Assembly: GCA_964500695.1 (NCBI GenBank)
Contig: CAZCNT010000001.1
Coordinates: forward strand, 1 to 59,515
DNA length: 59,515 nt
Direction of reading: 5' to 3'
From: an uncultured Gammaproteobacteria bacterium
GTDB taxonomy: Bacteria > Patescibacteriota > Microgenomatia > UBA8517
Part shown: one piece after another, positions 10,245-51,634 of the stretch
Layout of the letters: every line of letters begins with the position of its first letter
Position numbering within the stretch: the stretch's first letter is position 1
Position numbers and translations under genes: made by a program
The notes under the pieces: generated by a model
What the model was told of the DNA's origin: nothing
Seen by the model: the letters and a program-made list of their open reading frames with translations, nothing else
Databases searched by the model: none

Positions 10245-10250
10245 ATTCAA

Positions 10251-10331: not shown

Positions 10332-10340
10332 TTAAATAAT

Positions 10341-10985: not shown

Positions 10986-11010
10986 GCAAATCTGCAAATA
11001 ATCAAATGGG
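10984..11010. repeat. octamer word array (AAGCAAAT CTGCAAAT AATCAAAT)
   Basis: 8-nt period seen directly. Same words as at 11788..11818 and 18999..19035. Confidence 0.6.
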
Positions 11011-11790: not shown

Positions 11791-11818
11791 GCAAATAAGC
11801 AAATATGCAAATAAATAC
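11788..11818. repeat. octamer word array (AGCAAATA AGCAAATA TGCAAATA) spanning the tktN stop and the tktC start
   Basis: 8-nt period. The ATG of the next CDS lies inside the third word. Confidence 0.6.
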
Positions 11819-15533: not shown

Positions 15534-15555
15534 ATAAGAAAATTGTAACACAATT

Positions 15556-16006: not shown

Positions 16007-16991
16007 TATTGCCATGCAAGAAACCATACAAAAACTTTTAGCTTCCGGAAAGGGAATTTTGGCTGCCGACGCAAGGATAAAAAGCATGGGTAAGCGTTTG
16101 GAGGCAATTGGGGTAGAACCCACACCAGAAAATGCCTTGAAATTCCGAGGAATTTTATTTGCCACTCCCGGTATTGGTGAGTTCATAAGCGGAGTAATAC
16201 TTAATGACGACACGGTTCGTAATTCATTGGAAAATAAGCCTGTACCTAAATTTCTTGAAGAAAAAGGAATCACTCCAATTATCAAAGTTGACGAAGGAAT
16301 AGAACCGTTTGGAGAAGGAGAGGAGGAGATAACAAAAGGTTTGGAAACCCTCCCCCAAAAGTTAAAAGAGTACTCAGGAATGGGGTTAAAAGCTACAAAA
16401 TGGAGAGGAGTGATTAAAATCTCCGATATTTACCCGACTGAACCTTTCTTGGAGGAAAATTTCGGCAGGATGATTAAATATGCCAAATTGTGCCAGGATA
16501 ACGCTTTTGTTCCGATTGTAGAGCCTGAAATATTACTTGACGGGAATCATACCACCACTCGTTGTGAAGAAGTTGAAACAAAAGTGCTTAAAATTTTGTT
16601 TGAGAAATTAAAGTCGGGAGGAGTGGATCTAACAAAGCTTATTCTTAAAACAAGCATGGTTCTGCCCGGAAAAGATAGCGGGGTTAAAGCTGCGCCATTG
16701 GAGGTAGCCAACGTTACACTTAGGACACTGAAAGCGGCTGTTCCCTCGGAAGTTCCCGGAATAATATTTCTTTCCGGAGGTCAGACCCCCGATCAGGCGA
16801 CAGACAATCTTAACGAAATAAGTAAACTCAAAGGAGATGTTCCGTGGCAAATATCCTTTTCTTATGAAAGGGCGCTGCAGGAGGAGGCAATGACGGAGTG
16901 GGCGGGAAAGGACGAAAATATTGTAAAGGCCCAAGAAGCATTTTACGAAAGAGTCAGGAATGTTTCGGCTGCAAGGGAGGGAAGGCTCTAG
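15963..16991 (+). CDS. fba: fructose-bisphosphate aldolase, class I
   Basis: Contains GKGILAADARIKSMGKR and is 342 aa. The N-terminal roughly 15 codons are the right arm of cassette 1. Confidence 0.85.
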   Translation: MSDPISNQPVIQLSNIAMQETIQKLLASGKGILAADARIKSMGKRLEAIGVEPTPENALKFRGILFATPGIGEFISGVILNDDTVRNSLENKPVPKFLEEKGITPIIKVDEGIEPFGEGEEEITKGLETLPQKLKEYSGMGLKATKWRGVIKISDIYPTEPFLEENFGRMIKYAKLCQDNAFVPIVEPEILLDGNHTTTRCEEVETKVLKILFEKLKSGGVDLTKLILKTSMVLPGKDSGVKAAPLEVANVTLRTLKAAVPSEVPGIIFLSGGQTPDQATDNLNEISKLKGDVPWQISFSYERALQEEAMTEWAGKDENIVKAQEAFYERVRNVSAAREGRL

Positions 16992-17992: not shown

Positions 17993-19000
17993 ATGCGTAT
18001 TTTTGTAACCAGAAAAATTCCGGGGGACCATCTCGAAAAACTTAAAGTAGATGGCAATGAGGTTGCAATTTCTGAATTTGATCGGCCGTTAACTCAAGAA
18101 GAACTTTTGGATCGGGGCAAAGGAGCCGATATTCTTTTAACACTTCTTACGGATCGAATTGACGGGGATCTGATGGATGCTATCGGTCCTCAATTGAAGA
18201 TGATCAGTAATTATGCCGTGGGATTTGACAATGTTGATATTAAGGCAGCCACAGATAGGCAGATAGTTGTAACAAATACTCCAAGTACGGAGGTTAATGA
18301 GGCGGTTGCGGAACATACGTGGGTATTTATTATGGCTTTGGCGAGGCGTGTGGTTGAAGCAGACGAGTTTGTTAGACAAGAAGGGTACTTTACAGAAAAA
18401 GGTGGCTATAAAGGCTGGGAGCCGAATTTATTTTTAGGACAGTCGATATTGGGAAAGACGTTGGGAATAATCGGACTTGGACGGATTGGTTCAATGGTTG
18501 CAAAACGTGCTAAAGGCTACAACATGACGGTTCTTTACAATAAATCCAAACCGGATTCGGAGGCGGAAGCCGAACTTGGGGTAAAATTTGTAACATTGGA
18601 TGAACTATATAAACAGAGTGATTTTTTAACCTTGCATGTGCCCCTGACAGATCAAACACGCCATATGATTAATGAGAATGTTTTTAACAAAATGAAGAAA
18701 GGCGCGTTTTTGATTAATACTGCCAGAGGGGCGGTAGTTGACGAGAAAGACCTGATAGACTCATTGAAATCAGGCAAGCTAGGAGGAGTAGCGCTTGATG
18801 TGTTTGATAACGAACCCAACATTTCCGCGGAACTTATTGCCGCACCAAACGTGATATTAACTCCCCACATTGCCAGTGCCACTTGGGAGGCCCGAAATAA
18901 GATGGGAGAGCAGGCTGTAAAGGCGATTCTCGATGTAATTTCTGATAAAAAACCGGAGAATTTAGTTGATGAAGCTGTCTGGAATAAACGAAGGAAATAA
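17993..19000 (+). CDS. D-2-hydroxyacid dehydrogenase (glyoxylate/hydroxypyruvate reductase-like)
   Basis: Contains GIIGLGRIGS (NAD site) and TPHIAS. Confidence 0.85.
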   Translation: MRIFVTRKIPGDHLEKLKVDGNEVAISEFDRPLTQEELLDRGKGADILLTLLTDRIDGDLMDAIGPQLKMISNYAVGFDNVDIKAATDRQIVVTNTPSTEVNEAVAEHTWVFIMALARRVVEADEFVRQEGYFTEKGGYKGWEPNLFLGQSILGKTLGIIGLGRIGSMVAKRAKGYNMTVLYNKSKPDSEAEAELGVKFVTLDELYKQSDFLTLHVPLTDQTRHMINENVFNKMKKGAFLINTARGAVVDEKDLIDSLKSGKLGGVALDVFDNEPNISAELIAAPNVILTPHIASATWEARNKMGEQAVKAILDVISDKKPENLVDEAVWNKRRK

Positions 19001-19152
19001 GCAAATCTGCAAATCTACCAATTTGCAAATAAGCATAGCTTGGCCAAATTATGAATCTGGTAAATATTTGAATGATTCAATAATTAAATAATTTGAAATT
19101 TATTTGCTTTAGACGAAGTCTCCTAATTTTCCATTTGCTTATTTGTTTATTG
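18999..19152. repeat. octamer word arrays in inverted arrangement (GCAAAT words ... ATTTGC words)
   Basis: Left arm AAGCAAAT CTGCAAAT CTACCAAT TTGCAAAT AAGCA. The right side contains TATTTGCTT and CCATTTGCTTATTTG. CAAATAAGCA / TGCTTATTTG are an exact complement. Confidence 0.6.
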
Positions 19153-26944: not shown

Positions 26945-29443
26945 ATGCAAGTTCAAACGGGAAAATCAAAAAACTCGTACGCTAAAAGCGGTAAGAGGAA
27001 AATATTTTATAAAAACGGCGAGACCAAAATTTCTGTCGACGAACTTTTTGCACCCAGCTACGAGGAGGTCATGGTTCAGATAAAGAAGAAGGTGGGAGAA
27101 AGGCCGGAATTGCCGCGAGATCTTCCCAGGGGTGAGTGGACAGAACAATCAATCAGAGTTTTAAAAGAAAGGTATTTAGTTAAAGATGAGAATTTGGAAC
27201 TCATTGAGAATCCTGAAGAGATGGTTTGGAGGGTAGCATGGGAGGCTGCTTCGGCTGAAAGTAGGTGGGGTAAAAACAAAAAAGAAGTGTTAAGCGAAGC
27301 CAGAAATTTTTACGAACTAATGGTTTCAAGGAAATTTTTACCGAATTCTCCAACGTTAATGAATGCGGGAACAGGTAACGGTCTTCAATATTCTGCCTGT
27401 TTTGTTTTGCCGGTAGAGGACTCCTTGATTGGAATCTTTGATGCCGTGAAGTACCAAGCATTAATTCACCAAACGGGAGGCGGTACAGGATTCTCTTTTT
27501 CAAGGCTTAGGCCCAGCGGATCCGTAGTAAAGTCTAGCCATGGAACCGCGTCCGGTCCTGTATCGTTTATGCGAATTTTTGACGCCGCCACAAACGAAAT
27601 AAAGCAGGGTGGAAAAAGGCGGGGTGCCAATATGGGAATTTTGCGGGTGGACCACCCCGATATTTTAGAATTTATTCATTGCAAAGAGACTGGCGGAATA
27701 ACCAATTTCAACATATCGGTTGCCATAACGGATGCTTTTATGGACGCTTATAAAAAAGATCAGGATTATAAACTGATTGATCCTAAAACAAAAAAAATTG
27801 CAGGGAAATTGTCTGCCAGACGCGTTTTTGACGAAATTAGTCTGGGGGCTTGGAAAACCGGTGACCCGGGCCTCATTTTTATAGATAGGAGAAATAGGGG
27901 TGCTTCTAACCCCGTCCCGTCTCTTGGCCCGATTGAGGCGACAAACCCCTGTGGTGAACAGGAACTTTATCCCTATGATGCTTGTAATTTGGGAAGCATT
28001 TTCCTGGGCTATTTTGTTAAAGATAATGAAATTATGTGGGAAGCGCTTGGCGATGCCGCCAAAACAGCAACGCGCTTTCTGGACAATATAATTGAGGTTA
28101 ACCCCTTTCCTTTGGACCAAATCAGAAAGACGGTATTCAATATTAGAAGAATCGGGTTAGGTGTCGGAGGTTGGGCGGATCTTCTAATCGAACTTGGAAT
28201 TCCTTATGACTCAGATGAAGCAATGGCGCTTGGAGCAAAAGTTATGAAGTTTATTTATGAAGAAGCGGTTAAAGAAGACAAAAAATTAGCAAGAGAGCGC
28301 GGAGCCTTTCCGCTCTGGCCCGTGAGTATTTATAGGGATCAGGACATGAGGAGAAATTCGACGATTACTACAATCGCTCCAACCGGGACAATTTCAATTA
28401 TCGCAGGAGCAAGTAGCGGAATAGAACCGCTCTTTGCAATTGCTTTCCAACATATCGTAAAAGATAAACATCTGGATAGAAAACTAACATTTATTGAACC
28501 AAAATTTGAAAGAGTGGCAAAGGCACGGGGTTTCTGGAGCGAAGAACTTATGGAGAAAGTGGCAGTAAAGGGAGTCGTGCGGGATATTGAGGAAATTCCG
28601 GAAGACGTCCGCGCCACTTTTGGTACGGCTCACGAGATTGATATTGATTGGCATATAAAAACACAGGCGGTATTTCAGAAATATACAGAGAATGCAGTAA
28701 GTAAGACTATCAATTTGAGACACGATGCAACCGTCGAGGATGTTAAAAAAGCTTATTTAATGGCTTGGCAAACAAACTGTAAAGGAATAACAATATTCAG
28801 AGACGGAAGTAAAAGTGCGCAGGTTTTAAATTTGGGGGTAAACAACAGTGAAGAGAGCGTGGAAGAAGCTGTTTTTCAAAAGCAGTTAGTTCTTGAACGT
28901 CCGGTTAAAGTTGAGGGGGCGACATATAAAATCGCCACTCCGTTCGGAAATGCTTTTATTACAATAAATCAGGATTCCGCAGGAAATCCGTTTGAAATTT
29001 TCATAATGATCGGTAAAGCCGGAAGCGAAATTTCGGCAATGGCAGAAGCGCTTGGGAGGGTTATTTCTACAACGTTTCGTTTTGGCAATCACTTGCCGGC
29101 ACGGGAGCGGGCGCGCGAGATAATGGAGCAGCTTAAAGGTATCGGGGGAGGCAGATCGGTTGGTTTCGGACCAAACAAAATTAAATCTCTTCCGGACGCT
29201 GTAGCACGGGTACTTTCGATGCATTTTGGTTTTTCTACGAGTCACATTAATGAACAAACCCCCACTGACATGGCAGCGCATAACGTTACAACGCAAAGTG
29301 AGACATTTCTGTCTAACCCCACACCTGCAGTGGTTGAATTTGAAGCCAAGCGTGCCGACATTTGCCCTTCATGCGGAGCCAATGCTCTGGTTTATGAAGA
29401 AGGCTGTGCCAAGTGCCATGCGTGCGGTCACTCCGAGTGTTAA
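26945..29443 (+). CDS. nrdJ: class II (adenosylcobalamin-dependent) ribonucleotide reductase
   Basis: 832 aa with TNPCGEQELYPYDACNLGS and a C-terminal CPSCG...CAKCHACG zinc ribbon. Confidence 0.9.
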   Translation: MQVQTGKSKNSYAKSGKRKIFYKNGETKISVDELFAPSYEEVMVQIKKKVGERPELPRDLPRGEWTEQSIRVLKERYLVKDENLELIENPEEMVWRVAWEAASAESRWGKNKKEVLSEARNFYELMVSRKFLPNSPTLMNAGTGNGLQYSACFVLPVEDSLIGIFDAVKYQALIHQTGGGTGFSFSRLRPSGSVVKSSHGTASGPVSFMRIFDAATNEIKQGGKRRGANMGILRVDHPDILEFIHCKETGGITNFNISVAITDAFMDAYKKDQDYKLIDPKTKKIAGKLSARRVFDEISLGAWKTGDPGLIFIDRRNRGASNPVPSLGPIEATNPCGEQELYPYDACNLGSIFLGYFVKDNEIMWEALGDAAKTATRFLDNIIEVNPFPLDQIRKTVFNIRRIGLGVGGWADLLIELGIPYDSDEAMALGAKVMKFIYEEAVKEDKKLARERGAFPLWPVSIYRDQDMRRNSTITTIAPTGTISIIAGASSGIEPLFAIAFQHIVKDKHLDRKLTFIEPKFERVAKARGFWSEELMEKVAVKGVVRDIEEIPEDVRATFGTAHEIDIDWHIKTQAVFQKYTENAVSKTINLRHDATVEDVKKAYLMAWQTNCKGITIFRDGSKSAQVLNLGVNNSEESVEEAVFQKQLVLERPVKVEGATYKIATPFGNAFITINQDSAGNPFEIFIMIGKAGSEISAMAEALGRVISTTFRFGNHLPARERAREIMEQLKGIGGGRSVGFGPNKIKSLPDAVARVLSMHFGFSTSHINEQTPTDMAAHNVTTQSETFLSNPTPAVVEFEAKRADICPSCGANALVYEEGCAKCHACGHSEC

Positions 29444-29455
29444 CCTCAAAATATT

Positions 29456-31618
29456 ATGAATGACATATCCCTTTTGGATAAAAAGATAATTAAAGCGGAT
29501 GGAAGTGAAGAGATATTCAATAGTGAAAAAATTTTCAGGGGAATTTTTAAAGCAGCAGAAAATGTCGGCGGAACCAATGAAAGTTTGGCGAAAGATTTAT
29601 CCCTGGAAGTTATCAGTTTTCTTAAAAGCAAACTTAATGGAGAGTTGACAATTCCCAGTATGTTGGTTGGGGAAGCGGTCGAGAAAATATTAATTGAAAA
29701 AGGTCACGCAAAAACCGCCAAGGCCTTTATAATTTACAGGGAAAACAAGAAGCATTTGCGGCAGGACAAGTCCTCACTCGGGGTGGTTGATGATATTGGG
29801 TTTTCTTATAACACTCTTTATATTCTTAAACAGCGTTATTTAAAAAGAAATGAAAAAGGAGAAATTATAGAAACACCAAAAGGTATGATAGAAAGGATTG
29901 CTAGGGCGTTAAGTAAGGTAGAAAAGACTTCGATTAAAAGAAAAAGATATTTCAAGGAATTTTTTGATTTGATGGTTAATTTTGAATTCTTACCCGGTTC
30001 AAGAACCATGGCCAATGCCGGAAAAGCTTCACCGCAGCTTGCAAATTGTTTTGTTTGGCCAATTGCCGATGACATCAATAACGTTTTTGATATTTTATAT
30101 AAATCTACGTTGATCAAAAAACACGGCGGGGGGTGTGGTTATAACTTTTCAAGTATCCGTCCGGAGGGTGACTCTGTTGCCGGAATTCCTGAAATTGCTG
30201 CGGGGCCGGTAAAGATGATTGAAATGTTTAACTTGATGACGTCGCTTTTTCGCCAGGAGGGAAAATATGAAAGCGGGAATATGGCAATACTCAACGTTGA
30301 CCATCCTGATATTTTTAATTTTATCTCCGCCAAACAAAACGACGGATATTTAAGTAAAACCAATATTTCGATTGGAATTACAGATAAGTTTATGGAGGCT
30401 GCGATCCACAATAAAGATTGGAAGCTTATTAATCCGAGGACTAAAAAGGTGGTTAATATCGTCTCGGCACGGTCAATTTTGGATCTAATGGCTACAATAG
30501 CCTGGCAGACGGGCGACCCGGGAATTGTCAATCTTTCGGCCATGAATAAAGGTACGGCTCGCTCAAACCCGCTTTTGAAGAAAAAAGGAATGATTATGGC
30601 CACAAACCCCTGCGGGGAAGTACCCCTTTATCCTTTTGAATCCTGCAACTTGGGGTATGTTAATTTTGTGAAATTTGTCAAAAACGGGAAGTTCAATTAC
30701 AAAAGATTGGCAGAGGTTATGAAGGTTGCGGTGCGCCTGATGGATAACGTAATCGAAGCCTCCTGGTTTCCGGTTCCCGAAGTTACCAAATCGGTTAAAG
30801 ATCATAGAAGAATCGGTATTGGGGCAGTTGGCTGGGCGGAAGTTTTGGCCGTTCTCGGAATATCTTATGATAGTAATGAAGCTTTCAAAATGGCTGAAAA
30901 AGTTACCAGGGTAATGTATGAAAATGCTTTTTCCTCCTCGATCGAAATCGCCAAGGAAAAAGGCCCCTTCCCTTTGGTAAAAGACTCAATTTGGGCAGAC
31001 AAAAAAGAAAAACCCAGAAATGTTGCCCTTCTGACGTTTCCTCCGAGTTCAAGTAATGCCGTAATATGCGAAACTACTTTTGGGGTAGAGCCATATTTTG
31101 CCTTAGCTTATGAGCAAAATGTGATGGAAGGAATGAGGCTAAAAACTGTAGTACCTCTTTTAGTCGAAAAGCTAAAAGAAAGAGGTATCTATTCGGAAGA
31201 TCTTATATCAAAAATAATTGCGAACCACGGCAGTATTCAGGGGATTTCCGAAGTTCCTGAGGATCTTAAAAAAGTTTTTAAAGTGGCCCACGACTTAAAT
31301 TGGCGCGACCACATTAAAATGCAAGCTGCTTTTCAAAAGTGGACGGATAACGCTATTACGAAGACAATTAACATGCCGATGGATACCACTCCCAATGACA
31401 TTAAAGAAGCTTACATTATGGCCTGGAAATTAGGATGCAAGGGCTTAACGGTTTACAGAGATCACACAAAAAAGGATCAGGTTTTTGAGTTTGGAAACGG
31501 AAGCGTTGCCAAAAGTGGAATTGCTGCAAAAATGTGTCCCAACTGTGACATCCCCCTTAAGCGCGATAAAAAATGTCTTAAGTGCGAACGCTGTGGTTTT
31601 TCGACCTGTGAACTATAA
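29456..31618 (+). CDS. nrdJ: class II ribonucleotide reductase paralog with N-terminal ATP-cone
   Basis: 720 aa with TNPCGEVPLYPFESCNLGY, an N-terminal ATP-cone-like segment and a C-terminal CPNC...CLKCERCG. Confidence 0.88.
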   Translation: MNDISLLDKKIIKADGSEEIFNSEKIFRGIFKAAENVGGTNESLAKDLSLEVISFLKSKLNGELTIPSMLVGEAVEKILIEKGHAKTAKAFIIYRENKKHLRQDKSSLGVVDDIGFSYNTLYILKQRYLKRNEKGEIIETPKGMIERIARALSKVEKTSIKRKRYFKEFFDLMVNFEFLPGSRTMANAGKASPQLANCFVWPIADDINNVFDILYKSTLIKKHGGGCGYNFSSIRPEGDSVAGIPEIAAGPVKMIEMFNLMTSLFRQEGKYESGNMAILNVDHPDIFNFISAKQNDGYLSKTNISIGITDKFMEAAIHNKDWKLINPRTKKVVNIVSARSILDLMATIAWQTGDPGIVNLSAMNKGTARSNPLLKKKGMIMATNPCGEVPLYPFESCNLGYVNFVKFVKNGKFNYKRLAEVMKVAVRLMDNVIEASWFPVPEVTKSVKDHRRIGIGAVGWAEVLAVLGISYDSNEAFKMAEKVTRVMYENAFSSSIEIAKEKGPFPLVKDSIWADKKEKPRNVALLTFPPSSSNAVICETTFGVEPYFALAYEQNVMEGMRLKTVVPLLVEKLKERGIYSEDLISKIIANHGSIQGISEVPEDLKKVFKVAHDLNWRDHIKMQAAFQKWTDNAITKTINMPMDTTPNDIKEAYIMAWKLGCKGLTVYRDHTKKDQVFEFGNGSVAKSGIAAKMCPNCDIPLKRDKKCLKCERCGFSTCEL

Positions 31619-34691: not shown

Positions 34692-35033
34692 ATGGCTGCC
34701 ACCCCTGAAACACTAAGACCGGAGGCTTTGGAAATTACTGAACATCAAGAAGAGTTTATCGTACCTGAAACTCTTCAACAAAGCGGGATGAAGGTGGTTC
34801 AAAAAAACTTTAAAGCCCAGATTAACGACGATAAGGGGGCACCCTTAATACAAACACCCCCAACGCAGGTTATTACAGTCAGCACACCTTCCGATCAGGC
34901 GACTCTCACTAAACAGGCCGGCGGGTCGGTAGCTTCATCTCTCACTTGGCTGGCTGCTTTTTGGCTCAGGGTTATTAAAAAAGCATTGCATTTTGGTTGG
35001 AAAATAGTCGGAAAGGAGCAAAATGTATCTTGA
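34692..35033 (+). CDS. hypothetical protein with C-terminal TM, partner of the T4CP-like ATPase
   Basis: 113 aa. Overlaps the next CDS by 11 nt. Confidence 0.6.
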   Translation: MAATPETLRPEALEITEHQEEFIVPETLQQSGMKVVQKNFKAQINDDKGAPLIQTPPTQVITVSTPSDQATLTKQAGGSVASSLTWLAAFWLRVIKKALHFGWKIVGKEQNVS

Positions 35034-37356
35034 TGGTGTAAATTTTGGTGTGATAATTTTTTCTGCGGTAGGAATTGCCTTATTTATATTTCTGATGGTG
35101 GCCATGGGCTATCTAATTTTTGCGATGTTTAGACACAGAAAACGGGAAGAAACTTCAATCGATTCGGTTCTTCTTTCCGTGGCACTTCCCCGGAATAACG
35201 AGATAAAAATTGATGCCATGGAGCAGCTTTTCTCTTCTCTCTATTCGATTAAAAAGGGTGGTTATTGGCAAAAATTTGATATTCAACCGGCAATTTCCTT
35301 CGAAATTGTGGCGAAGCAAGAAGATATTAGGTTTTATGTCTGGGCGCCGAAGAAGCTTAAGGATTTAGTCGAAAAGCAAATTAATGGGAGTTACCCGGAT
35401 GCAGAGATTCTTGAAACAGATGAATACAACATTTTTACGAGTGACGGTAAAGTTGCTTATAAGTCTTTTCAACTGTCAAAAAGTTCCTTTTTTCCAGTAA
35501 AAACATTTAAAGATTTGGCAACCGATCCGATGGGGGGAATTACCTCGGCTTTAGCTAAAATGGGACCCGGTGAGGCTGCTGCAATTCAGGTTATAATTTC
35601 TCCCGCAGAGAACGATTGGCAAAAAGAGGGGAGCCATTTTATAAGTGATACCAAAAAACAGGAAAGCGACCCGGAAAAAGCCAAGTTTTCCACCTCTGCA
35701 AAAACTCTTGAGGCAGTAGAAAATAAAGTGGGGAAACCGGGTTTTGAAACTTCTATAAGAATTATTGCAATTTCCGACGACGAAGCCTCTGCAAAAAGCC
35801 ATGTAGCAAACATTTCAAGCGCTTTTGCTCAGTTTAACGGGGATCTAAATAATCTAAAGAGTAGGAAAATCCGTCGGAAGGGCGCTTTTATGGAAGATTT
35901 TCTTTACCGATACCTACCCATGTTTAATGTTTTTGGCAATCATCCTTCGATTCTAAATTCCGAAGAGTTGGCTACAATATTTCACTTTCCCAACAGACAG
36001 ATTACTACCCCGCATGTTTTTTGGCTTAATGCAAAAACAGCGCCTGCCCCGGCCCAAATTCCCAACGAGGGGCTTCATTTGGGGGTAAGCAGCTATCGTG
36101 GTATTAAGCGGGAGGTTTATATAGGGAATGAAGACAGAATGCGCCATATTTACATTATTGGAAAAACCGGAACCGGAAAATCGGAAATTCTTAAAGACAT
36201 GATTTTACAGGATATAAAGGACGGAAAAGGACTTTGTTTTATGGATCCGCACGGAGATGCAATTGAAGATATTCTGAAGCTAATTCCACCCGAAAGAGTA
36301 GAAGATGTAATTTATTTTAACCCCAATGATACCCAGCGCCCTATTGGAATGAACTTACTTGAAGCCAGAACCGAAGACGAGAAACATTTTGCGGCAACTA
36401 GCATTATTAATCTTATGTACAAGCTTTTTGATCCTTACAAAACCGGGATTGTAGGACCAAGATTTGAACATGGAGTTAGAAATGCCATGCTTACCGTAAT
36501 GGCAGAACCGGGAAATACGTTTGTCGAACTGATGCGCGCCATGACGGACTCCAGATATGTTCAGGAACTTCTGCCCAAGGTTACCGACCCGATTATTCGG
36601 AGATATTGGACAGATCAGATTGCGCAAACTAGCGACTTTCACAAGTCGGAGGTGTTGGATTATACGGTTTCAAAGTTTGGCCGTTTTGTTACAAATAAAT
36701 TAATCAGAAATATCATAGGGCAGCCTCAAAGCTCGTTTGATTTCAGAAAAATTATGGATGAAGGAAAAATTCTTCTTGTTAACCTGGCAAAAGGAGAATT
36801 GGGGGAGGAGAACAGTAATTTTTTGGGACTTCTTTTAGTTCCCAGGATTCTTATGGCTGCAATGAGCCGCGCAGATGTTCCGATGGAGCAGCGCCGCGAT
36901 TTTTACTTTTATGTTGATGAGTTTCAAAATTTTGCTACCCCGGATTTTGCCGTGATTCTTTCCGAAGCCAGAAAATACCGTCTTGGTCTTTGCGTTGCCA
37001 ATCAGTTTATCGGTCAGGTGGAAGATGAGGTCAAAAACGCCGTATTTGGAAATGTGGGTACAAAAATAAGTTTTAGGGTGGGTGTATCAGACGCCAATTT
37101 TTTGGCGCATGAATATGCCCCGGTTTTTGGAGAGGACGATTTACTTAATGTTGAACGTTTTCATGCTTATGTAACCACCATCGTTGACAACGAGCCGGTT
37201 CCTCCATTTTCTATGGATACGACGAAAGATATAAGTAAGATTAAAGCTATGGAAAGCCCGAGAATTGCTGAAATAATTAAGGAGATGAGCAGACTCAAGT
37301 ATGGCAGGGACGAGAGACTGGTGGAAGCTGAAATGAACCGAAGGTCTAAACTGTAA
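35023..37356 (+). CDS. VirD4/TraD-like (type IV coupling protein-like) membrane ATPase
   Basis: N-terminal TM pair, Walker A GKTGTGKSE and Walker B-like FYFYVDEFQNF. 777 aa. Confidence 0.75.
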   Translation: MYLDGVNFGVIIFSAVGIALFIFLMVAMGYLIFAMFRHRKREETSIDSVLLSVALPRNNEIKIDAMEQLFSSLYSIKKGGYWQKFDIQPAISFEIVAKQEDIRFYVWAPKKLKDLVEKQINGSYPDAEILETDEYNIFTSDGKVAYKSFQLSKSSFFPVKTFKDLATDPMGGITSALAKMGPGEAAAIQVIISPAENDWQKEGSHFISDTKKQESDPEKAKFSTSAKTLEAVENKVGKPGFETSIRIIAISDDEASAKSHVANISSAFAQFNGDLNNLKSRKIRRKGAFMEDFLYRYLPMFNVFGNHPSILNSEELATIFHFPNRQITTPHVFWLNAKTAPAPAQIPNEGLHLGVSSYRGIKREVYIGNEDRMRHIYIIGKTGTGKSEILKDMILQDIKDGKGLCFMDPHGDAIEDILKLIPPERVEDVIYFNPNDTQRPIGMNLLEARTEDEKHFAATSIINLMYKLFDPYKTGIVGPRFEHGVRNAMLTVMAEPGNTFVELMRAMTDSRYVQELLPKVTDPIIRRYWTDQIAQTSDFHKSEVLDYTVSKFGRFVTNKLIRNIIGQPQSSFDFRKIMDEGKILLVNLAKGELGEENSNFLGLLLVPRILMAAMSRADVPMEQRRDFYFYVDEFQNFATPDFAVILSEARKYRLGLCVANQFIGQVEDEVKNAVFGNVGTKISFRVGVSDANFLAHEYAPVFGEDDLLNVERFHAYVTTIVDNEPVPPFSMDTTKDISKIKAMESPRIAEIIKEMSRLKYGRDERLVEAEMNRRSKL

Positions 37357-37805
37357 GGCAAGTAATAAAAGTAAATAAAGTAATGAAGGTAATACAAGTA
37401 TGGAAAGTGGATACAAGAAGCTGATAGTTTGGCAGGAAGCTTTAAAGTTGATAGTTTTGGTTTATAGGTTAACGAAGACCTTCCCAAAATCTGAAGACTA
37501 TGCGCTAAGAGACCAAATAAGGAGAGCGGTGGTCTCGGTGTTAAGCCAGATTGCTGAAGGGTGGCTGCGTAGCTCCAAAAAAGATAAACTTCACTATCTT
37601 GAAATTTCATTAGGTTCTTTAATGGAGGTTGAGTCTCAGGCCGAAGTAGCATTAGCAGTTGGGTACTGGAATTTTAACAATCTGCAAGATTTTGAGGCTC
37701 AACGGGCCAAAGTTTGCTATCTTCTGGTAAGGTATGTTTCTAAGATTAAGTCCGGTTAGCCTTCTTATTACCTGTATTACTTCTATTACGTTTATTACTT
37801 TTTCG
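37356..37805. mobile_element. putative IR-bounded cassette 2 carrying a four-helix-bundle gene
   Basis: The arms 37360..37399 and 37760..37800 are reverse complements (30/40 by hand). They are built of 9-nt GTAAT words. Confidence 0.65.
37400..37759 (+). CDS. four-helix-bundle protein (23S rRNA IVS protein family)
   Basis: Contains LIVWQEALKL...FPKSEDYALRDQIRRAVVSVLSQIAEG. Confidence 0.85.
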   Translation: MESGYKKLIVWQEALKLIVLVYRLTKTFPKSEDYALRDQIRRAVVSVLSQIAEGWLRSSKKDKLHYLEISLGSLMEVESQAEVALAVGYWNFNNLQDFEAQRAKVCYLLVRYVSKIKSG

Positions 37806-37878
37806 TAAGTTTGGTATAATTGCCTCAGTTGGGGACCCTTATAAGCGAAGCTTGAAGCTGGCGCTATAGCAAAATTTT

Positions 37879-37953
37879 GGGCCATTCGTTCATCGGCTAG
37901 GACGGGACTCTTATAAAGTCCAAAGGATAGTTCGACTCTATCATGGCCCACCA
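37879..37953 (+). tRNA. tRNA-Ile, anticodon UAU, CCA encoded
   Basis: Hand fold: GGGCCAT-TC-GTTC-ATCGGCTA-GGAC-G-GGACT-CTTATAA-AGTCC-AAAG-GATAG-TTCGACT-CTATC-ATGGCCC-A-CCA. U8, A14, GG, U33 and the TTCGA T-loop are all present. Confidence 0.85.
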
Positions 37954-37975
37954 AAATTTTGGTATAGCGGAGCGC

Positions 37976-38017
37976 CATAAAGTATCAAGGATGGTTCGAC
38001 TCCATCGTGATCCACCA
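37976..38017 (+). pseudogene. tRNA 3'-half relic (anticodon-loop remnant, T-arm, acceptor 3' strand, CCA)
   Basis: CATAAAGTATCAAG-GATGG-TTCGACT-CCATC-GTGATCC-A-CCA. No complementary 5' acceptor strand (GGATCAC) lies upstream. Confidence 0.6.
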
Positions 38018-38076
38018 AATTTTGACACACGTTCTAAAGAATGTGATAAACAGAGCTTGCTTCTCGAAGACTCGAA

Positions 38077-38143
38077 GTAAAGCCCAAAGGATGGCTATAG
38101 TCCTGAGCGGAGTCGAAGGATTCGACTCCATCCAGACCCACCA
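38077..38143 (+). pseudogene. tRNA 3'-half relic with a 26-nt insertion in the T-loop, CCA encoded
   Basis: GTAAAGCCCAAA-GGATGG-[CTATAGTCCTGAGCGGAGTCGAAGGA]-TTCGACT-CCATCC-AGACCC-A-CCA. The alternative 9-bp hairpin GGAGTCGAA/TTCGACTCC is possible. No 5' partner is present. Confidence 0.55.
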
Positions 38144-38147
38144 AGAG

Positions 38148-39017
38148 TTATATATTCTCCCCACAAATTACCGATAAAGAGGCTCTTAATTTTTGGAAGT
38201 TTTCGTTAATATCACTTGACGTATCAATTACGGCCAGGTTTGGTTGTTTTTTCCTTCTTAAATCTAAAATAGCCTTTAGATACTGTTCATATAATAATGT
38301 TAAAAATTCTTGATTCATATGGTTCCCTTGTCTGTTTTCCAGAGTAGTTCTTTTCATGGAGGTTTCAGGTGTTTGCATAAAAATAACTACAGCATCCATG
38401 TTTATACTGGCCCTAAATATCCACCCCTGTTCTGTATCAAAATAATCCTGAAGTGGAATTTCTCCATACATAAGCCGGGCTGCAGTAAAAATTGCATGAT
38501 CCACAAGACCTCTATTGTGGACGGTAATAGCAGTATCTTCTATACCCCTTTTCCTCTTTTCCATCTCGGACACTATAAATTCCCCAAAAGCCCCTGCAAG
38601 CCTCAGGTGTTGTTGTGTCATGGCATCTTGGGGCATGATTTTCTTCCAGTTTTTTATATGTGCGTAGGGTTCTGATGTCATTAATATATTTTTATGGCCC
38701 AGTGAAATTAGCTTCTCTATAAGAGTATCCTTGCCGGTTCTAGGCATACCGATTATGGCAATATTTCTGGAAGTTTGATTTAGTTTACGGCCTTTAAACG
38801 GTAGTAGATTGAACACGGAATCGACATTTGGTATTTCTTGAGGAGTCGAATCTCGGCTTAGCTCGTTTTTAAAAAGTAATCCCTCGATGGTGTATTTTTC
38901 GGCCAAAAGAACATCGCGCTCAATGCCAATTCTGGGTTCAATTTTGGCAACAGCTTTAATCACAGAGTTGTAACCTTCTGAGGACAGCCAAGGATGACCA
39001 CTTTCCACTTTCATCAA
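38148..39017 (-). CDS. P-loop NTPase, nucleoside/nucleotide-kinase-like
   Basis: 289 aa with Walker A GMPRTGKDT. No closer assignment is possible by eye. Confidence 0.6.
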   Translation of the reverse strand: MMKVESGHPWLSSEGYNSVIKAVAKIEPRIGIERDVLLAEKYTIEGLLFKNELSRDSTPQEIPNVDSVFNLLPFKGRKLNQTSRNIAIIGMPRTGKDTLIEKLISLGHKNILMTSEPYAHIKNWKKIMPQDAMTQQHLRLAGAFGEFIVSEMEKRKRGIEDTAITVHNRGLVDHAIFTAARLMYGEIPLQDYFDTEQGWIFRASINMDAVVIFMQTPETSMKRTTLENRQGNHMNQEFLTLLYEQYLKAILDLRRKKQPNLAVIDTSSDINENFQKLRASLSVICGENI

Positions 39018-39041: not shown

Positions 39042-39923
39042 TTATAGCTCAATGAGGGTTTGTTTCTTGCCTGTCTCTGTTATTTGAGCCAGCTCCAAGT
39101 AGCGCTCGGTTGTGGAAAGACGCTTGTGACCGGAGACCTGAGAAAGAAGTACCAAGTCAACTTCATTTTTGAGATTCTCAACAATAAAAGTAGTTCTTAA
39201 GTCATTAACCGAGTAGCTGGGAAGCTCTGCCCGCTGCATATACCTGGAGATTGAAGCCCTGATGTTTCTGACCGCCAAAGGCTTACCGTTTTTGCTGATA
39301 AAAACATAGGGAGAGTCAGACTTGGGTCTGATATTCATATAAGAAACAAGGGTTTCTTGGGATGGATTGTTCAATGGAATGTTTCTTTCCGGTTGGGTGG
39401 CATAGGACTCAACTTTGAGAGAACCGTCCTTGACACCCACAGTTTTAAGATTGGCCACCTCCGAAATTCGAAGCCCCGTTTGTAGTATCAATTCAATGAT
39501 CGCCGCGATCCGAATGTCGCTTCTGACAACGTCCCTCAGTGCCCTATATTCGAGCTGAGAGAGAAACCTGGGAAGTGAGTTTTCGATTTTGGGATGGGCA
39601 ACGGATGCTGACACATCCCCGGTTATGATATTTTCGGAAATCATCCATCTGAAGAAAGTTTTAACGGCATTAAGTTTTCTACTTACCGACTTGGCTGTGT
39701 ATTTATCGGCCAAAAGAGTGTCGCGGAAGGAATCAAGATCGTCGGGTCTAACCTGTGTGGGTGTAACCTTACTCTTTTTGATCAAAAATTCCACTAACTG
39801 TTCAAGATCGCTTTTGTAGGCCAAAATAGTCGCCGGAGAGCGACTTTTAGCTTTCAACGATTCGATAAACTTAGGAAGCAGGTTTTTTATCGTAAATACG
39901 TCTTTCATTGTATCTTCTGTCAT
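39042..39923 (-). CDS. tyrosine site-specific recombinase, XerC/XerD-like
   Basis: SAM-like N-domain (TILAYKSDLEQLVEFL), then GLRISEV ... GHKRLSTTERY. Confidence 0.85.
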   Translation of the reverse strand: MTEDTMKDVFTIKNLLPKFIESLKAKSRSPATILAYKSDLEQLVEFLIKKSKVTPTQVRPDDLDSFRDTLLADKYTAKSVSRKLNAVKTFFRWMISENIITGDVSASVAHPKIENSLPRFLSQLEYRALRDVVRSDIRIAAIIELILQTGLRISEVANLKTVGVKDGSLKVESYATQPERNIPLNNPSQETLVSYMNIRPKSDSPYVFISKNGKPLAVRNIRASISRYMQRAELPSYSVNDLRTTFIVENLKNEVDLVLLSQVSGHKRLSTTERYLELAQITETGKKQTLIEL

Positions 39924-40580: not shown

Positions 40581-40600
40581 ATTTATTACTTGTATTACTT
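40581..40600. repeat. solo GTAAT-word patch (reverse complement AAGTAATACAAGTAATAAAT) abutting and covering the stop of the Nfu_N-like gene
   Basis: Exact 19-mer AAGTAATACAAGTAATAAA is shared with recF at 51277..51295. Confidence 0.7.
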
Positions 40601-41266
40601 GGTGACGAACGTGATGTTGCCGAATACGTTCTCGAAGGCGAGTTTTATCTTGTCTTCAAGTGTCTTTCCGTTATCGTCACGTTCCGTCCAGCTGAATGCT
40701 TGTCCGATCGAGACTGAAACCTCATAGGGATGCATCCAGATCTCGGTGGTGCCTGGTAAAGCCATGAGCTTTCGAACCAAGGACGCACCTTCGGAACCAA
40801 TCTTGGTAAGGTAGCTTCCGCTTGAATCACGCAGAGGACGTTTAAAGTCCTCGATAACTGAGCGTGAAACCTCAAAGTTGGTGTGATACTCCAGCCTACC
40901 ACTTTGGGACTTTCCGATAACCACTTTCTTACCAGATGGAATTCCCTGTATCCTGCCCAGTTCTTTGAATGTGTTCTCGACAATTTCGTCGATTCTTTCA
41001 TCCCATCGCCGCCAGGGTCGTTTTGAGTCATCAATGTATACACTGACTTCGTATGGCTTTACGAAGATATCGTGGACGCCGAGGCGGAACAGATCACGGA
41101 CCATGTTGGCAACAATTTGCCCTTGATCGTGAAGAGCGTTCTCGTACGAACCCGACAACCAGAATGCGTAGTGATCGATCGATGACTTTCCGACCACCAC
41201 ATTGGTGTGAAAAGCACGACTTTTATCACTGTGTATCTCGACTTGAAATTTAAGTTCCATGACCAA
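40595..41266 (-). CDS. tandem Nfu_N-like (scaffold N-terminal) domain protein
   Basis: Two internal repeats, each ending ...LGVHDIFVKPYEVSVYI...W / ...TTEIWMHPYEVSVSI...W. Looks more G+C-rich than its neighbours by eye. Confidence 0.6.
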   Translation of the reverse strand: MVMELKFQVEIHSDKSRAFHTNVVVGKSSIDHYAFWLSGSYENALHDQGQIVANMVRDLFRLGVHDIFVKPYEVSVYIDDSKRPWRRWDERIDEIVENTFKELGRIQGIPSGKKVVIGKSQSGRLEYHTNFEVSRSVIEDFKRPLRDSSGSYLTKIGSEGASLVRKLMALPGTTEIWMHPYEVSVSIGQAFSWTERDDNGKTLEDKIKLAFENVFGNITFVTK

Positions 41267-41825: not shown

Positions 41826-41836
41826 GATGACCTCGG

Positions 41837-41905
41837 TTGCGGGGCCAGAGGTCGCATCTGGCCTGAAAGATTATGAGCCTTTCGTGCACTGTACACTACC
41901 CCGCA
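41837..41905 (-). tRNA. atypical tRNA, anticodon CAU (short D-loop without GG, T-loop UGCGACC)
   Basis: Hand fold: TGCGGGG-TA-GTGT-ACAGT-GCAC-G-AAAGG-CTCATAA-TCTTT-CAGG-CCAGA-TGCGACC-TCTGG-CCCCGCA-A. Total 69 nt. Confidence 0.5.
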
Positions 41906-43979: not shown

Positions 43980-43992
43980 CGCACAAATACAA

Positions 43993-44080
43993 AACTCTAA
44001 TTTCTAAATCCTAATTAAATCCAAAATTGGAATTTGTAAATTAAAATTTATTTAGAGTTTAGAATTTAGGATTTAGGGTT
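43993..44080. repeat. cargo-less inverted heptamer arrays (AACTCTA ATTTCTA AATCCTA ATTAAAT ... TAGAGTT TAGAATT TAGGATT TAGGGTT)
   Basis: 7-nt period on both arms. The arms are roughly complementary when G-U pairs are allowed. Same layout as 10251..10331. Confidence 0.75.
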
Positions 44081-44115
44081 TCAGCTTTAACAAAGCTGAT
44101 GTATAATCCCTCTGT

Positions 44116-49364: not shown

Positions 49365-50471
49365 CTACTTTTTAAATGTTGTATACAAATCGAAAAGTTT
49401 TTGAGCGGTATTTTTTGCTGAAAAACTCAAAGCGTATTCGTAGGTTTTTTGCGAAAGACTATAATAGTTTTCTTTGTTTTTTGCGATTTCACTTATCTTT
49501 TCTGCGATTTTTTTAGGATTTCTTTCGCAAATATATCCGGATTGGTTGTCAATTATCAGTTCTTCAAGACCAGAACCTTTTAAAGATATGGTAGGAATTC
49601 CTGAAGCCATAGCTTCAAGGATTGAAATCGGCATAACCTCGCTTAATGATGGTGTAATAAAAAGATGAACAGACTTGTATATTTCCGGAATAAGTTTTCT
49701 GTCAACCACTCCCGTAAAGGTTATATTATTTTCAAGTCCCAATTTAAATGTTTGATCCTGCATTTTTTGAAAAAGAAGACCCGAACCTAAAATCCAAAAT
49801 TTAAAATTGGGGATTAACTTTTTGAGCTCTCTGGCTATCTTAATCAATTCCAGAGGGTTTTTTTCTCTATCCAACCTGCCGGTATAAGCCAGTGTCAGGG
49901 GATGAAAGGGTTTTTCTTGAGGTTTATTAAAAAAGAAATCCTCGACGCCATTATTGACAATAATGGTGTTTTTAATGCCGTGTTTAATCAGTCTTTTTTC
50001 AGTGTTTGACGATGGACAAATAACCTTCTTTGATTTTTTGGAAATTTTGACTAAGTCTCTAATCAATATTTTTGAGGTCGCGTCATAACCTTTGGGAAAG
50101 TAATAATTTAAATACTGCTCATATTGTGTATGGGCAGTAAAGAAAAGAGGTTTGCCCAGCCTATCCGCTATTTGCGAAGCCGCCTGCCCGATTATTAAGG
50201 GATGGTGTGTATGGACAATATCTATTTTTAATTTTTTGATTTTTTTTGTGGGTAAGAAGGGAATTCCCATAGGATAATTTTTAATAAACGGGTTAGGCAG
50301 AGACGGATATCGGATAACATCTTTATATTGGTCTTTATATCCCGGGAACGATGGGGCAAGAATATATACTTTATGGCCAAGTTTCCTCAGAGCATCGGCT
50401 GTTGAGCTAATGTGATAAGTGACCCCGTTTGCTGTGGGAAGATAACTGGCTGTTGTGAATAGGATGTGCAT
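49365..50471 (-). CDS. GT4-family glycosyltransferase
   Basis: 368 aa with SEVMPISILEAMASGIPTI. Confidence 0.8.
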   Translation of the reverse strand: MHILFTTASYLPTANGVTYHISSTADALRKLGHKVYILAPSFPGYKDQYKDVIRYPSLPNPFIKNYPMGIPFLPTKKIKKLKIDIVHTHHPLIIGQAASQIADRLGKPLFFTAHTQYEQYLNYYFPKGYDATSKILIRDLVKISKKSKKVICPSSNTEKRLIKHGIKNTIIVNNGVEDFFFNKPQEKPFHPLTLAYTGRLDREKNPLELIKIARELKKLIPNFKFWILGSGLLFQKMQDQTFKLGLENNITFTGVVDRKLIPEIYKSVHLFITPSLSEVMPISILEAMASGIPTISLKGSGLEELIIDNQSGYICERNPKKIAEKISEIAKNKENYYSLSQKTYEYALSFSAKNTAQKLFDLYTTFKK

Positions 50472-50494
50472 TGGGGTGTATTATACTTCATGAG

Positions 50495-51634
50495 ATGATA
50501 AAAAAACTGAAACTTGTCAATTTTAGAAATTTCAAGGCCAAAACGTTGGATTTTTCCGACAAAGTTACGGTGATTGTCGGACCGAATGCCAGCGGGAAAA
50601 CTAATATTCTCGAATCTCTTTTTTTACTTTCTACCGGGAAAAGTTTTAAGGCCAGGATTGAATCGGAAACGATTCAATATTCGAGCGATATCGCTCGAAT
50701 AATAGGTAATACAAGTAATGAAAGTAGTATAAGTAATACACAATTAGAGGTGGTGCAGACGCGCGGGGAGAATGGTTGGCCGAGAAAAAAGCTTCTGGTT
50801 AACGGAGTTCCAAAGCGCTTAATTGATTTTGCAGGAAACTTTAGAACAGTTCTTTTTGGCCCTTGGGATATGGATATTGTTACAGAGAGCCCGAGCCTAA
50901 GAAGAAGGTTTTTGGATACAGTGCTATCCCAAGTTGATAGGGAATACCGACGTTCCATCCTTTCCTATGAAAAAGGATTAAGGCAAAGAAATCGGGTGCT
51001 TTGGACAATGCGGGAGTATCCGACAGGCTCTTCGGGACGCGACAAACTCCTTTTTTGGAACCAACTTCTCATTAAAAATGGGAATTATATTACAGAAGCC
51101 AGGGAAAATTTTATCGATTTTTGTAATTCTCACCAGTCACAAGTCACTAGTCACTATTCACTGGAGTACGACAGGTCCCTAATATCTGAGGGAAGACTTG
51201 AACAGTACAAAGAAGAGGAAATTGCGGCGGCCACAACACTTGTCGGTCCTCATCGTGATGATTTCATTTTTCTGAAAAGTAATACAAGTAATAAAAGTAA
51301 CACAGGTAATATAGGTAGGGAACTGGCCTCATTCGGCTCACGGGGTGAACAGAGGATGGGGATTTTGTGGCTAAAAATGGCGGAATTGGATTATATTGAG
51401 AAATGCTCTACTCTGGATTCGACTCCCTCGGCAGACCTCAGTTCGCTCACCATTCGTCGGAGCGCGGACTCACGTCCGACGCTTCTTCTCGACGATATAT
51501 TTTCGGAACTGGATCATGAACACAGGGAAGTGGTTATGCAAATCTCAAAAAAACAACAGACGATAATTACCACGGCAGACCCGCATTTTGTCAGCAATTT
51601 GAAAAAAGTGGAGAGAATTGAACTGTTGAGATAG
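50495..51634 (+). CDS. recF: DNA replication and repair protein RecF
   Basis: Contains LKLVNFRNF, GPNASGKTN and LLLDDIFSELD. Start taken at MIKKL. Confidence 0.9.
   Translation: MIKKLKLVNFRNFKAKTLDFSDKVTVIVGPNASGKTNILESLFLLSTGKSFKARIESETIQYSSDIARIIGNTSNESSISNTQLEVVQTRGENGWPRKKLLVNGVPKRLIDFAGNFRTVLFGPWDMDIVTESPSLRRRFLDTVLSQVDREYRRSILSYEKGLRQRNRVLWTMREYPTGSSGRDKLLFWNQLLIKNGNYITEARENFIDFCNSHQSQVTSHYSLEYDRSLISEGRLEQYKEEEIAAATTLVGPHRDDFIFLKSNTSNKSNTGNIGRELASFGSRGEQRMGILWLKMAELDYIEKCSTLDSTPSADLSSLTIRRSADSRPTLLLDDIFSELDHEHREVVMQISKKQQTIITTADPHFVSNLKKVERIELLR
50705..50740. repeat. 9-nt GTAAT word array in recF (GNTSNESSISNT)
   Basis: GTAATACAA GTAATGAAA GTAGTATAA GTAATACAC. Confidence 0.7.
51131..51164. 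repeat. heptamer array CACCAGT CACAAGT CACTAGT CACTATT CACTGG in recF (HQSQVTSHYSL)
   Basis: 7-nt period seen directly. Confidence 0.7.
51277..51316. repeat. 9-nt GTAAT word array in recF (SNTSNKSNTGNIG)
   Basis: Shares the exact 16-mer CAAGTAATAAAAGTAA with the cassette-2 arm (37359..37374). Shares a 19-mer with 40581..40600. Confidence 0.75.
51404..51480. repeat. G+C-rich in-frame insert in recF containing a T-arm-like GGATTCGACTCC and hairpin CGTCGGA...TCCGACG
   Basis: Encodes CSTLDSTPSADLSSLTIRRSADSRP immediately before the conserved LLLDD. GGATTCGACTCC also occurs at 38118..38129. Confidence 0.55.

Follow-up and report, generated by a model that had tools for sequence, protein, structure and literature searches.

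Inverted arrays of short tandem words bracket PF05635 four-helix-bundle genes across many bacterial phyla, including a free-standing cassette with 9-nt words

Introduction

Intervening sequences (IVSs) in the 23S rRNA genes of Leptospira, Coxiella burnetii, Brucella and Xanthomonas share an S23p/PF05635 open reading frame (ORF), placed in a loop between terminal inverted arms. The IVS of Coxiella has a stem that is cut by RNase III and a 5' arm of tandem GACAGAT heptamers whose number varies among strains, and its ORF seems to be untranslated and decaying (PMC4990558). Here we analyse a gene cassette of similar build in a 59,515-nt stretch of contig CAZCNT010000001.1 (assembly GCA_964500695.1), the whole of which we call the window. 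This element, cassette 2, consists of a four-helix-bundle gene of the PF05635 family and two inverted arms made of tandem 9-nt GTAAT words. It has the loop ORF and the terminal inverted arms in common with the rRNA IVSs, but it lies outside rRNA, between a type IV coupling protein (T4CP)-like gene and tRNA-Ile. It also differs from the Coxiella IVS in the length of its words, which is 9 and not 7 nt, and in an ORF that is under strong purifying selection. Cassette 2 is a free-standing, 9-nt-word variant of the IVS-type hairpin element.

Short tandem words are also known as dispersed repeats. They include the heptamer repeats (short tandemly repeated repetitive sequences, STRR) of cyanobacteria (PMC2670836), the TAACTGA repeats of Beggiatoaceae, which mostly end beside start codons (PMC4679880), and the GGGAATC repeats of Xanthomonas and GGGGA(C/T)T repeats of Nostoc, with 70 convergent pairs in X. 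campestris (PMC4692102). Heptamer repeats have 2-14 copies, are mostly intergenic, often abut or overlap start or stop codons and in some cases form convergent pairs capable of hairpin formation; each genome has one word family, at tens to hundreds of sites (PMC2670836, PMC4692102, PMC4679880, bioRxiv 2022.06.06.494920). None of these four papers mentions the four-helix-bundle family or links PF05635 to tandem repeats. We found no literature that connects PF05635, S23p or four-helix bundles with heptamer or STRR repeats, subscription literature being outside the search, and no report of such repeats for Saccharibacteria-like bacteria of the candidate phyla radiation (CPR), to which the organism of the window belongs. 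The word families of the window resemble the heptamer repeats in being dispersed, in abutting start and stop codons and in occurring as solo arrays or convergent pairs. They depart from them in that cassette 2 and its relatives in recF have a period of 9, whereas cassette 3 of the window and 42 of 51 related loci have a period of 7.

A single gene flanked by its own dispersed repeat is also a feature of the REP/REPIN-RAYT systems. Genes for RAYTs (REP-associated tyrosine transposases) are reportedly flanked by repetitive extragenic palindromic (REP) sequences that are dispersed genome-wide as inverted pairs and solo copies, and different RAYT paralogues are said to go with different REP families. 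RAYTs are HUH transposases and REPs are single palindromic units, whereas the genes described here encode a four-helix-bundle protein without a recognised catalytic domain and their repeats are tandem words. The Rickettsia palindromic elements reportedly occur in frame at tolerant surface positions of proteins, and also in non-coding DNA. The arrays in recF of the window are likewise inserted in frame at tolerant positions, but the Rickettsia elements are palindromes of 100-150 bp without an associated gene and the recF arrays are 36-45-nt runs of tandem words. TRAP, the trp RNA-binding attenuation protein, is a ring-shaped homo-oligomer that takes up one short repeat per subunit and accepts variable spacers; its likeness to PF05635 proteins is a mechanistic analogy only, and the two folds are unrelated.

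Results

The left arm of cassette 2 (37353-37399, plus strand) consists of five tandem 9-nt words, in order GTAAGGCAA, GTAATAAAA, GTAAATAAA, GTAATGAAG and GTAATACAA. The array starts at 37353, its first word includes the TAA stop codon (37354-37356) of the upstream gene, a TrwB/VirD4-like coupling-protein ATPase gene assigned by Pfam (35023-37356, plus strand), and its end abuts the ATG at 37400. The right arm (37763-37800, minus strand) has four 9-nt words, which read GTAATAAAC, GTAATAGAA, GTAATACAG and GTAATAAGA on the minus strand and appear as ATTAC at 9-nt spacing on the plus strand. It starts 4 nt past the stop codon of the ORF, and a T-run is located at 37799-37803. In the minimum free energy (MFE) fold this right arm closes onto the left arm. 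Downstream lies tRNA-Ile(UAU) (tat; 37879-37953, plus strand), identified by ARAGORN and by a local Rfam scan. The original prediction had described inverted arms with a 9-nt period around a four-helix-bundle gene, between the T4CP-like ATPase gene and tRNA-Ile, and the locus conforms to it in each of these respects.

Segments 37360-37394 and 37766-37800, of 35 nt each, are 83% complementary. As tandem words lead one to expect, the arms pair nearly as well in shifted registers, with 79%, 70% and 88% complementarity at shifts of 9, -9 and 18 nt. A scan of the window for inverted pairs (ungapped, minimum length 30 nt, minimum complementarity 80%, spacing 100-1500 nt) returned just two pairs in 59.5 kb, each bracketing a PF05635 gene, and the same scan of five Markov shuffles returned none.

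Two PF05635 genes beyond that of cassette 2 were detected in the window by tblastn, each with inverted arms of its own sequence. Cassette 1 (15551-16011, plus strand) has its PF05635 ORF at 15605-15970 and arms at 15551-15590 and 15972-16011, with a period of about 8. Cassette 3 (56836-57288, plus strand) has its ORF at 56889-57275 and arms at 56836-56889 and 57252-57288, which are made of 7-nt TAGCTAC/TAGAGCT words, the right arm ending at the start codon of pth. Both cassettes lie between protein genes, and there is no rRNA in the window. The MFE folds of cassettes 1, 2 and 3 each close a terminal stem around the ORF. Scans for promoters and terminators around cassette 2 gave nothing above chance, and Rfam, at gathering and E-value thresholds, placed no family over the cassette or its arms.

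The ORF between the arms of cassette 2 (37400-37759, plus strand, 119 aa) matches Pfam PF05635 (23S_rRNA_IVP; E 2e-32, 111.8 bits, cut-off 33.8) and TIGR02436, 'four helix bundle protein' (106.8 bits, cut-off 24). The solved pentamer XCC0516 of Xanthomonas (PDB 2gsc) matches residues 5-99 with an E value of 4e-19. These profile and structure matches identify the product as a TIGR02436/PF05635 four-helix-bundle ('23S rRNA IVS') protein. The R..S...N..E motif conserved in such proteins (Zhang & Ye 2013, PMC3936711) is present, with Q replacing N at the N position, and residues Q39, I40, R41, R42, S46, A52 and E53 are invariant among the three paralogues of the window. Family searches found no transposase, recombinase or nuclease domain in the 119-aa protein, and PADLOC found no defence-system match for it.

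The gene is intact and under strong purifying selection, with a dN/dS of 0.034 against its counterpart in L001, a contig of a Saccharibacteria metagenome-assembled genome (MAG). Cassette 2 is identical over 491 nt in six assemblies of one population, including GCA_000993945.1, and there is no variation in arm copy number among the six over the 491 nt compared. Divergence between L001:33-389 and window positions 37400-37756 is mosaic: the first ~150 nt of the ORF have saturated synonymous differences, the remainder has a dS of ~0.2, and the tRNA flank is nearly identical. This mosaic suggests recombination between alleles or paralogues within the cassette.

The protein of cassette 2 is also homologous to Avd, an accessory protein of diversity-generating retroelements (DGRs), which forms a pentameric four-helix-bundle barrel and binds nucleic acid (PMC10053308); the match to PF22296 (Avd) has an E value of 7e-6. 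Identity with Avd was rejected, as the equivalog NF033474 gave 32.4 bits against a cut-off of 80. Nor did we detect a DGR context: there is no adjacent reverse transcriptase or template/variable repeat pair, no reverse transcriptase family was listed, and the neighbours are the T4CP-like ATPase, tRNA-Ile, an unassigned 289-aa gene and a tyrosine recombinase.

We surveyed the PF05635 family by a scan with an alignment of the three window proteins, taking one genome per species. The 80 loci come from Bacteroidota, Chloroflexota, Planctomycetota, Acidobacteriota, Desulfobacterota, Firmicutes, Cyanobacteria, Proteobacteria and several CPR groups. When the 120 nt upstream of each gene were locally aligned with the reverse complement of the 120 nt downstream, 53 of 79 loci exceeded every shuffle by a margin. 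At a fixed score, a flanking inverted repeat was found at 51 of 82 PF05635 genes but at only 5 of the 280 control genes from the same DNA (Fisher p ~1e-34). Such arrays do cluster at four-helix-bundle genes, a point that the original prediction had proposed to test. The five positive controls include another PF05635 gene as well as two ordinary genes with like arrays on either side. Inverted tandem-word arms around PF05635 genes are the rule across many phyla.

Similar arrays were noted around genes of other kinds. The gene for a 305-aa protein (L010:955-1872) has inverted word arrays whose words are those of the neighbouring PF05635 cassette, and a galE-like epimerase gene, read as such from the sequence alone (L034:4969-6003), is bracketed by inverted arrays of the same type.

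Tandem arrays were called with Tandem Repeats Finder (TRF). TRF arrays occur on both flanks of 57 of 81 loci and have equal periods on the two sides in 51 of the 57, namely (7,7) in 42, (9,9) in 5 and (8,8) in 4. Cassette 2, with its 9-nt words, is a minority variant of the general PF05635 cassette design. The number of words per array has its mode at 4-5 and ranges from 2.4 to 14. The flanking arrays are inverted in 40 loci and direct in 3. In register the arms have an identity of 0.89, which falls to 0.75 when they are shifted by one period and to 0.30 off-period, and variant words follow a mirrored order in the two arms. Heptamer words have ~5 conserved and ~2 variable positions, with a contrast of 0.271 against 0.156 under a null of uniform drift, in a per-position profile drawn from period-7 loci only, cassette 2 being left out. 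The coding strand of the left arms is rich in G (547, against 172 C), and inverted word arrays recur in GC-rich genomes, with G-rich words. In one Flavobacterium orthologue (L017:2895-2985), ACTAAG words have the same orientation on both sides, whereas its sister species show the inverted arrangement.

None of the 20 strongest PF05635 loci is located in rRNA. Of the neighbouring genes, 70 of 78 upstream and 68 of 80 downstream run in the same direction as the PF05635 gene. The gaps to them have medians of 63 nt (upstream) and 43 nt (downstream), and the arms essentially fill these spacers. The cassette keeps its orthologous position across Flavobacterium species. Genes of this family have been described wedged inside cas operons by Zhang & Ye (PMC3936711), which fits the operon-embedded habit of the PF05635 cassettes.

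In Xanthomonas citri and X. campestris (L168-L172, ~1925-2375) accB and accC are separated by the XCC0516-type gene, which is flanked by the words GGGAATC, GGGAGTG, GAGAATC and GGGAATC and, opposite these, by the inverted array. Rehm et al. list the left arm of this cassette as repeat no. 15 in their supplementary table, beside 'conserved' XCC0516 (PMC4692102). The right arm ends exactly at the ATG of accC, giving a pyrimidine-rich leader without a Shine-Dalgarno sequence, and the same is seen at pth after cassette 3.

TRF called 20 arrays of period 7-9 with 2.9 copies or more in the window, which has 60% A+T: 11 of period 7, 4 of period 8 and 5 of period 9. The expectations from dinucleotide shuffles for these periods are 0.25, 0.1 and 0.05 (~0.4 in total), and no array of period 4-6 or 10-12 was found in the window. 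A strict autocorrelation detector was too insensitive (7 arrays), and TRF was used for this reason. The GTAAT-9 family comprises the arms of cassette 2, two in-frame arrays in recF and a solo array of two words (40582-40601, minus strand) that overlaps the TAA stop codon of gene 40595-41266 (minus strand). The 'Nfu_N-like' label previously attached to this gene is unsupported, with no Pfam match at E<=0.01. The TAGAGCT-7 family comprises the arms of cassette 3 and arrays within pth and one further gene, and the TTTAGAG-7 family comprises two ORF-less hairpins. One of these (10232-10332) has inverted 7-nt TCTAAAT/TTTAGAG arrays, lies between co-directional genes and has a fold z of -3.5; the other is at 43985-44082 (fold z = -2.8).

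The AAATAAGC-8 family is represented by one ORF-less hairpin of 8-nt words (18996-19151; fold z = -1.95), the first word of which contains the stop codon of gene 17993-19000, and by two solo arrays that hold or abut the stop and/or start codons of adjacent genes. The array at 10980-11007 (plus strand) fills the spacer from the stop of 10341-10985 to the start of 11011-11790, and that at 11786-11814 (plus strand) holds the stop of 11011-11790 together with the ATG (11805) of 11805-12788. Gene 11011-11790 has these arrays on both sides in direct and not inverted orientation, and no Shine-Dalgarno-like sequence is visible. We found no PF05635 cassette with AAATAAGC or TTTAGAG arms within the 59.5-kb window. 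Eighteen of 70 dispersed arrays near a cassette share the arm word of that cassette, where 3.1 are expected. The strand polarity of dispersed arrays relative to transcription is weak (40:24 and 38:22).

The two GTAAT arrays in recF (50471-51634, plus strand; gene confirmed) have a period of 9, are in frame and lie at hypervariable positions of the protein. The array at site A (50703-50745, plus strand) reads GNTSNESSISNT and that at site C (51275-51317, plus strand) reads KSNTSNKSNTGNIG. An exact 16-mer, CAAGTAATAAAAGTAA, occurs at 37359 in the left arm and at 51285 in recF (expected 0.00), and an exact 19-mer, AAGTAATACAAGTAATAAA, occurs at 51277-51295 (plus strand) and at 40582-40600 (minus strand), on the 3' flank of gene 40595-41266 (expected 0.01). 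Both matches had been noticed in the original prediction, which proposed that cassettes and coding genes share or copy arm material. A longer match speaks for the same conclusion: an exact 32-mer, GTAATACAAGTAATAAAAGTAACACAGGTAAT, is common to positions 51279-51310 of recF in the window and to the left arm of the cassette orthologue in L101. The 32-mer includes variant words and cannot stem from independent slippage; the arm and recF arrays are related by copying, which these matches prove to be recent, and not by convergence.

RecF of this clade has four hypervariable insertion sites, with inserts of 0 to >40 aa that are often tandem tripeptides. Other RecF lineages have different tandem-tripeptide words at these sites, either SITSITSITGITS or the pair SITGITGITSNT and SITGNIGITSNT, or no array. 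In a relative with an 82%-identical RecF, the DNA of site A is identical and sites B and C are filled by different arrays. The recF loops are thus permissive sites where arrays land or expand and turn over rapidly. Since the arrays fall in insertion hot spots that are present throughout the clade, recF is a permissive host and not a special partner. The recF gene of the window also has a 7-nt TCACTAG array at site B (51130-51162) and a 24-aa insert at site D.

The insertion site of cassette 2 was compared among 80 fetched metagenomic loci with orthologues of the T4CP-like ATPase (71-85% identity), ~70 of which have enough downstream sequence. Synteny of the T4CP-like gene and tRNA-Ile(UAU) is conserved among the orthologous loci. 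The cassette is present at this site in L101 alone among the 80 (~70 judgeable), and also in the window species and in L001. The L001 contig ends within the left arm, an example of how such arms break metagenome assemblies. At the empty sites of L108 and L148 the stop codon is followed by 50-60 nt and then the tRNA. These 50-60 nt include TTTGGTATAAT, an extended -10-like box found ahead of tRNA-Ile in the window (37810-37820, plus strand) and kept in cassette-free orthologous sites, which forms the right-hand boundary of the insertion. Cassette 2 is an insertion into a spacer of ~75 nt that extends from the T4CP-like stop codon to the tRNA-Ile promoter box.

In L081-L160 the ATPase/tRNA-Ile(UAU) spacer varies in content: it is empty or holds small ORFs or a gene of ~900 nt. 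One filler is a conserved ORF of ~70 aa that begins MVKKDTPELKFEYTNWEGKK. Two relatives have a solo AGTAGTT heptamer array at the T4CP/tRNA-Ile junction, and L103 has an array of AAATAAGC, a word family also present in the window, immediately before the tRNA.

Discussion

We lean, by a modest degree, towards the view that cassette 2 is a free-standing IVS-type cassette, in which a PF05635 gene occupies the loop of a hairpin whose arms pair in the transcript and offer a site to RNase III. The cassette would be transcribed by read-through from the upstream operon. No promoter or terminator of its own was predicted; the cassettes are co-directional and tightly packed, which leaves no room for such signals. 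In the RNA, the arms would pair as an imperfect duplex of ~35-40 bp and sequester the ORF's ribosome-binding region. The rRNA IVSs with the same ORF suggest, by analogy, that the duplex is an RNase III processing site and is probably cleaved, whereby the cassette would be excised from its flanking RNAs or separated from them. The tandem-word build would make the stem tolerant of register. It may also let the arms grow, shrink and swap with other arrays through slippage and short-homology recombination.

Several observations weigh against this account. The mismatches between arms have no G:U-compatible bias on the sense strand (37 vs 48 transitions, 106 transversions), so the substitutions give no specific pointer to an RNA helix. 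The fold z-scores of the whole cassettes are modest (-1.4 to -2.4 for the three of the window), and the loop of ~370 nt would need to be closed co-transcriptionally, during translation. Solo and direct arrays of the same words are unable to pair. Moreover, an RNase III stem alone leaves the tandem words, the cross-phylum dominance of period 7 and the 5-nt core unexplained. The universal periodicity and conserved core, the non-pairing arrays and the specific association with one gene family favour an additional interaction at the level of the word, for which the encoded pentamer is the candidate.

Such an interaction is the substance of a second explanation, which is compatible with arm pairing and which we consider possible yet distinctly less probable. 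The PF05635 pentamer would specifically bind word arrays, and the arms would be arrays of binding sites, with a 5-nt core plus a spacer as the unit and ~5 words for the five subunits (compare TRAP, or RAYT/REP). Arrays of that word elsewhere in the genome would serve as trans targets and form either a post-transcriptional regulon at stop/start junctions or a repeat family maintained by the protein; (GGGAATC)n for XCC0516 and (GTAATNNNN)n for the window protein would be candidate arrays. The specific tie of the arrays to the PF05635 family, the separate word of each paralogue in the window, the excess of dispersed arrays with the word of the local cassette and the core with its ~2 variable positions are all in line with this proposal. 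Relative to the T4CP regions of its relatives, the window has ~10x as many PF05635 genes and ~5x as many arrays per kb. The modal array of 4-5 words agrees with a pentamer, but the number of words has a wide span. Protein similarity tracks word similarity (r = -0.23, permutation p < 0.0005), although common descent explains most of this correlation. The heptamer that brackets XCC0516 is GGGAATC, which has 186 sites in the genome of X. campestris pv. campestris (Xcc; PMC4692102), and this arrangement suggests that PF05635 proteins are putative cognate partners of such repeats. For the recF/recO heptamers of Nostoc, an unidentified heptamer-binding protein has been postulated (bioRxiv 2022.06.06.494920). 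Against a cognate protein stand the AAATAAGC and TTTAGAG families, which have no cassette in the 59.5 kb, the apparent decay of the untranslated Coxiella ORF (PMC4990558) and the attribution of heptamer over-representation to polymerase slippage as well (PMC4692102).

An element that moves as DNA is a weaker explanation and, in our estimate, an unlikely one. The arms would be terminal inverted repeats in which subterminal sites are reiterated, the cassette and derivatives without the ORF, resembling miniature inverted-repeat transposable elements, would be mobile, and the arrays in recF and at gene junctions would be insertions or footprints. The variable presence of the cassette at the T4CP-to-tRNA-Ile site, two loci with ORF-less hairpins of a single word family, long exact matches between distant sites and arms without an RNA-type substitution bias are consistent with mobility, as is the replacement of the arrays at recF sites B and C in the 82%-identical relative, where site A is unchanged. 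GTAAG is found on both outer flanks of cassette 2 (37353-37357 and 37805-37809), but this possible 5-nt duplication is missing in L101 and is itself a fragment of a word. The sole ORF encodes a 119-aa protein with none of the domains expected of a mobile element among those searched for, and the cassettes are stable, both in the six identical assemblies and in their position across Flavobacterium species. Strong co-orientation with neighbours is not required of a DNA transposon, and the arms differ between paralogues, whereas the terminal inverted repeats of one transposase family are conserved. It is far less probable still that the arrays have no function and that slippage repeats simply accumulate in AT-rich spacers where a small gene happens to lie. 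The 60% A+T of the window, the fast evolution of the arrays in copy number and at variable positions, and the weak strand polarity of dispersed arrays would fit such an origin. The confinement of the window arrays to periods 7-9 in great excess over dinucleotide shuffles, the specificity of inverted pairing for PF05635 genes, the recurrence in GC-rich genomes with G-rich words and the mirrored order of variant words do not. The reading as chance low complexity was rejected, as it is contradicted by the shuffles and by the control genes.

As far as we have checked, there is no earlier description of the rule that inverted STRR-like arrays bracket PF05635 genes and that their words recur, dispersed, in the genome that carries them. 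The ORF of the 23S rRNA IVSs has been known since 1993 and structures have been solved, and it has no assigned role; the STRR or heptamer repeats have been known since 1990. The role of the IVS ORF, the meaning of the heptamer repeats and the excess of 7-nt repeats in bacteria may be three sides of one puzzle. We put forward, tentatively, that PF05635 pentamers could be the specific partners of bacterial repeats of 7-9 nt (STRR, GGGAATC, TAACTGA and GTAAT). If this is true, a given paralogue would recognise not only the array around its own gene but also those of like word that are located at gene junctions, in hairpins and in tolerated protein loops, the outcome would be a post-transcriptional regulon or a self-maintaining repeat family, and the rRNA IVSs would be the special case that was noticed first. 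Small PF05635 genes occur in cas, acc and other operons, and this position should not be taken to make them functional partners of the genes around them.

Additional features of the window

The 3' half of tRNA-Ile, from the anticodon loop to CCA, is present three times in direct orientation, at 37913-37959 (the real gene), 37977-38023 and 38078-38149, and a tyrosine recombinase gene (39042-39923, minus strand) is close to these repeats. The copies look like remains of serial integrations at the 3' end of the tRNA. The whole-window Rfam scan at gathering threshold listed one of the three tRNAs found by ARAGORN (sites including 41835-41905). The local scan by E value recovered tRNA-Ile at 51 bits, which indicates that the fast filters had lost it.

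Two adjacent genes similar to the large subunit of ribonucleotide reductase (832 and 720 aa) are located at 26945-31618 of the window. In L164:1-4219, from the same population, the second of these genes is called in two pieces, possibly owing to a strain-level disruption or an assembly difference.

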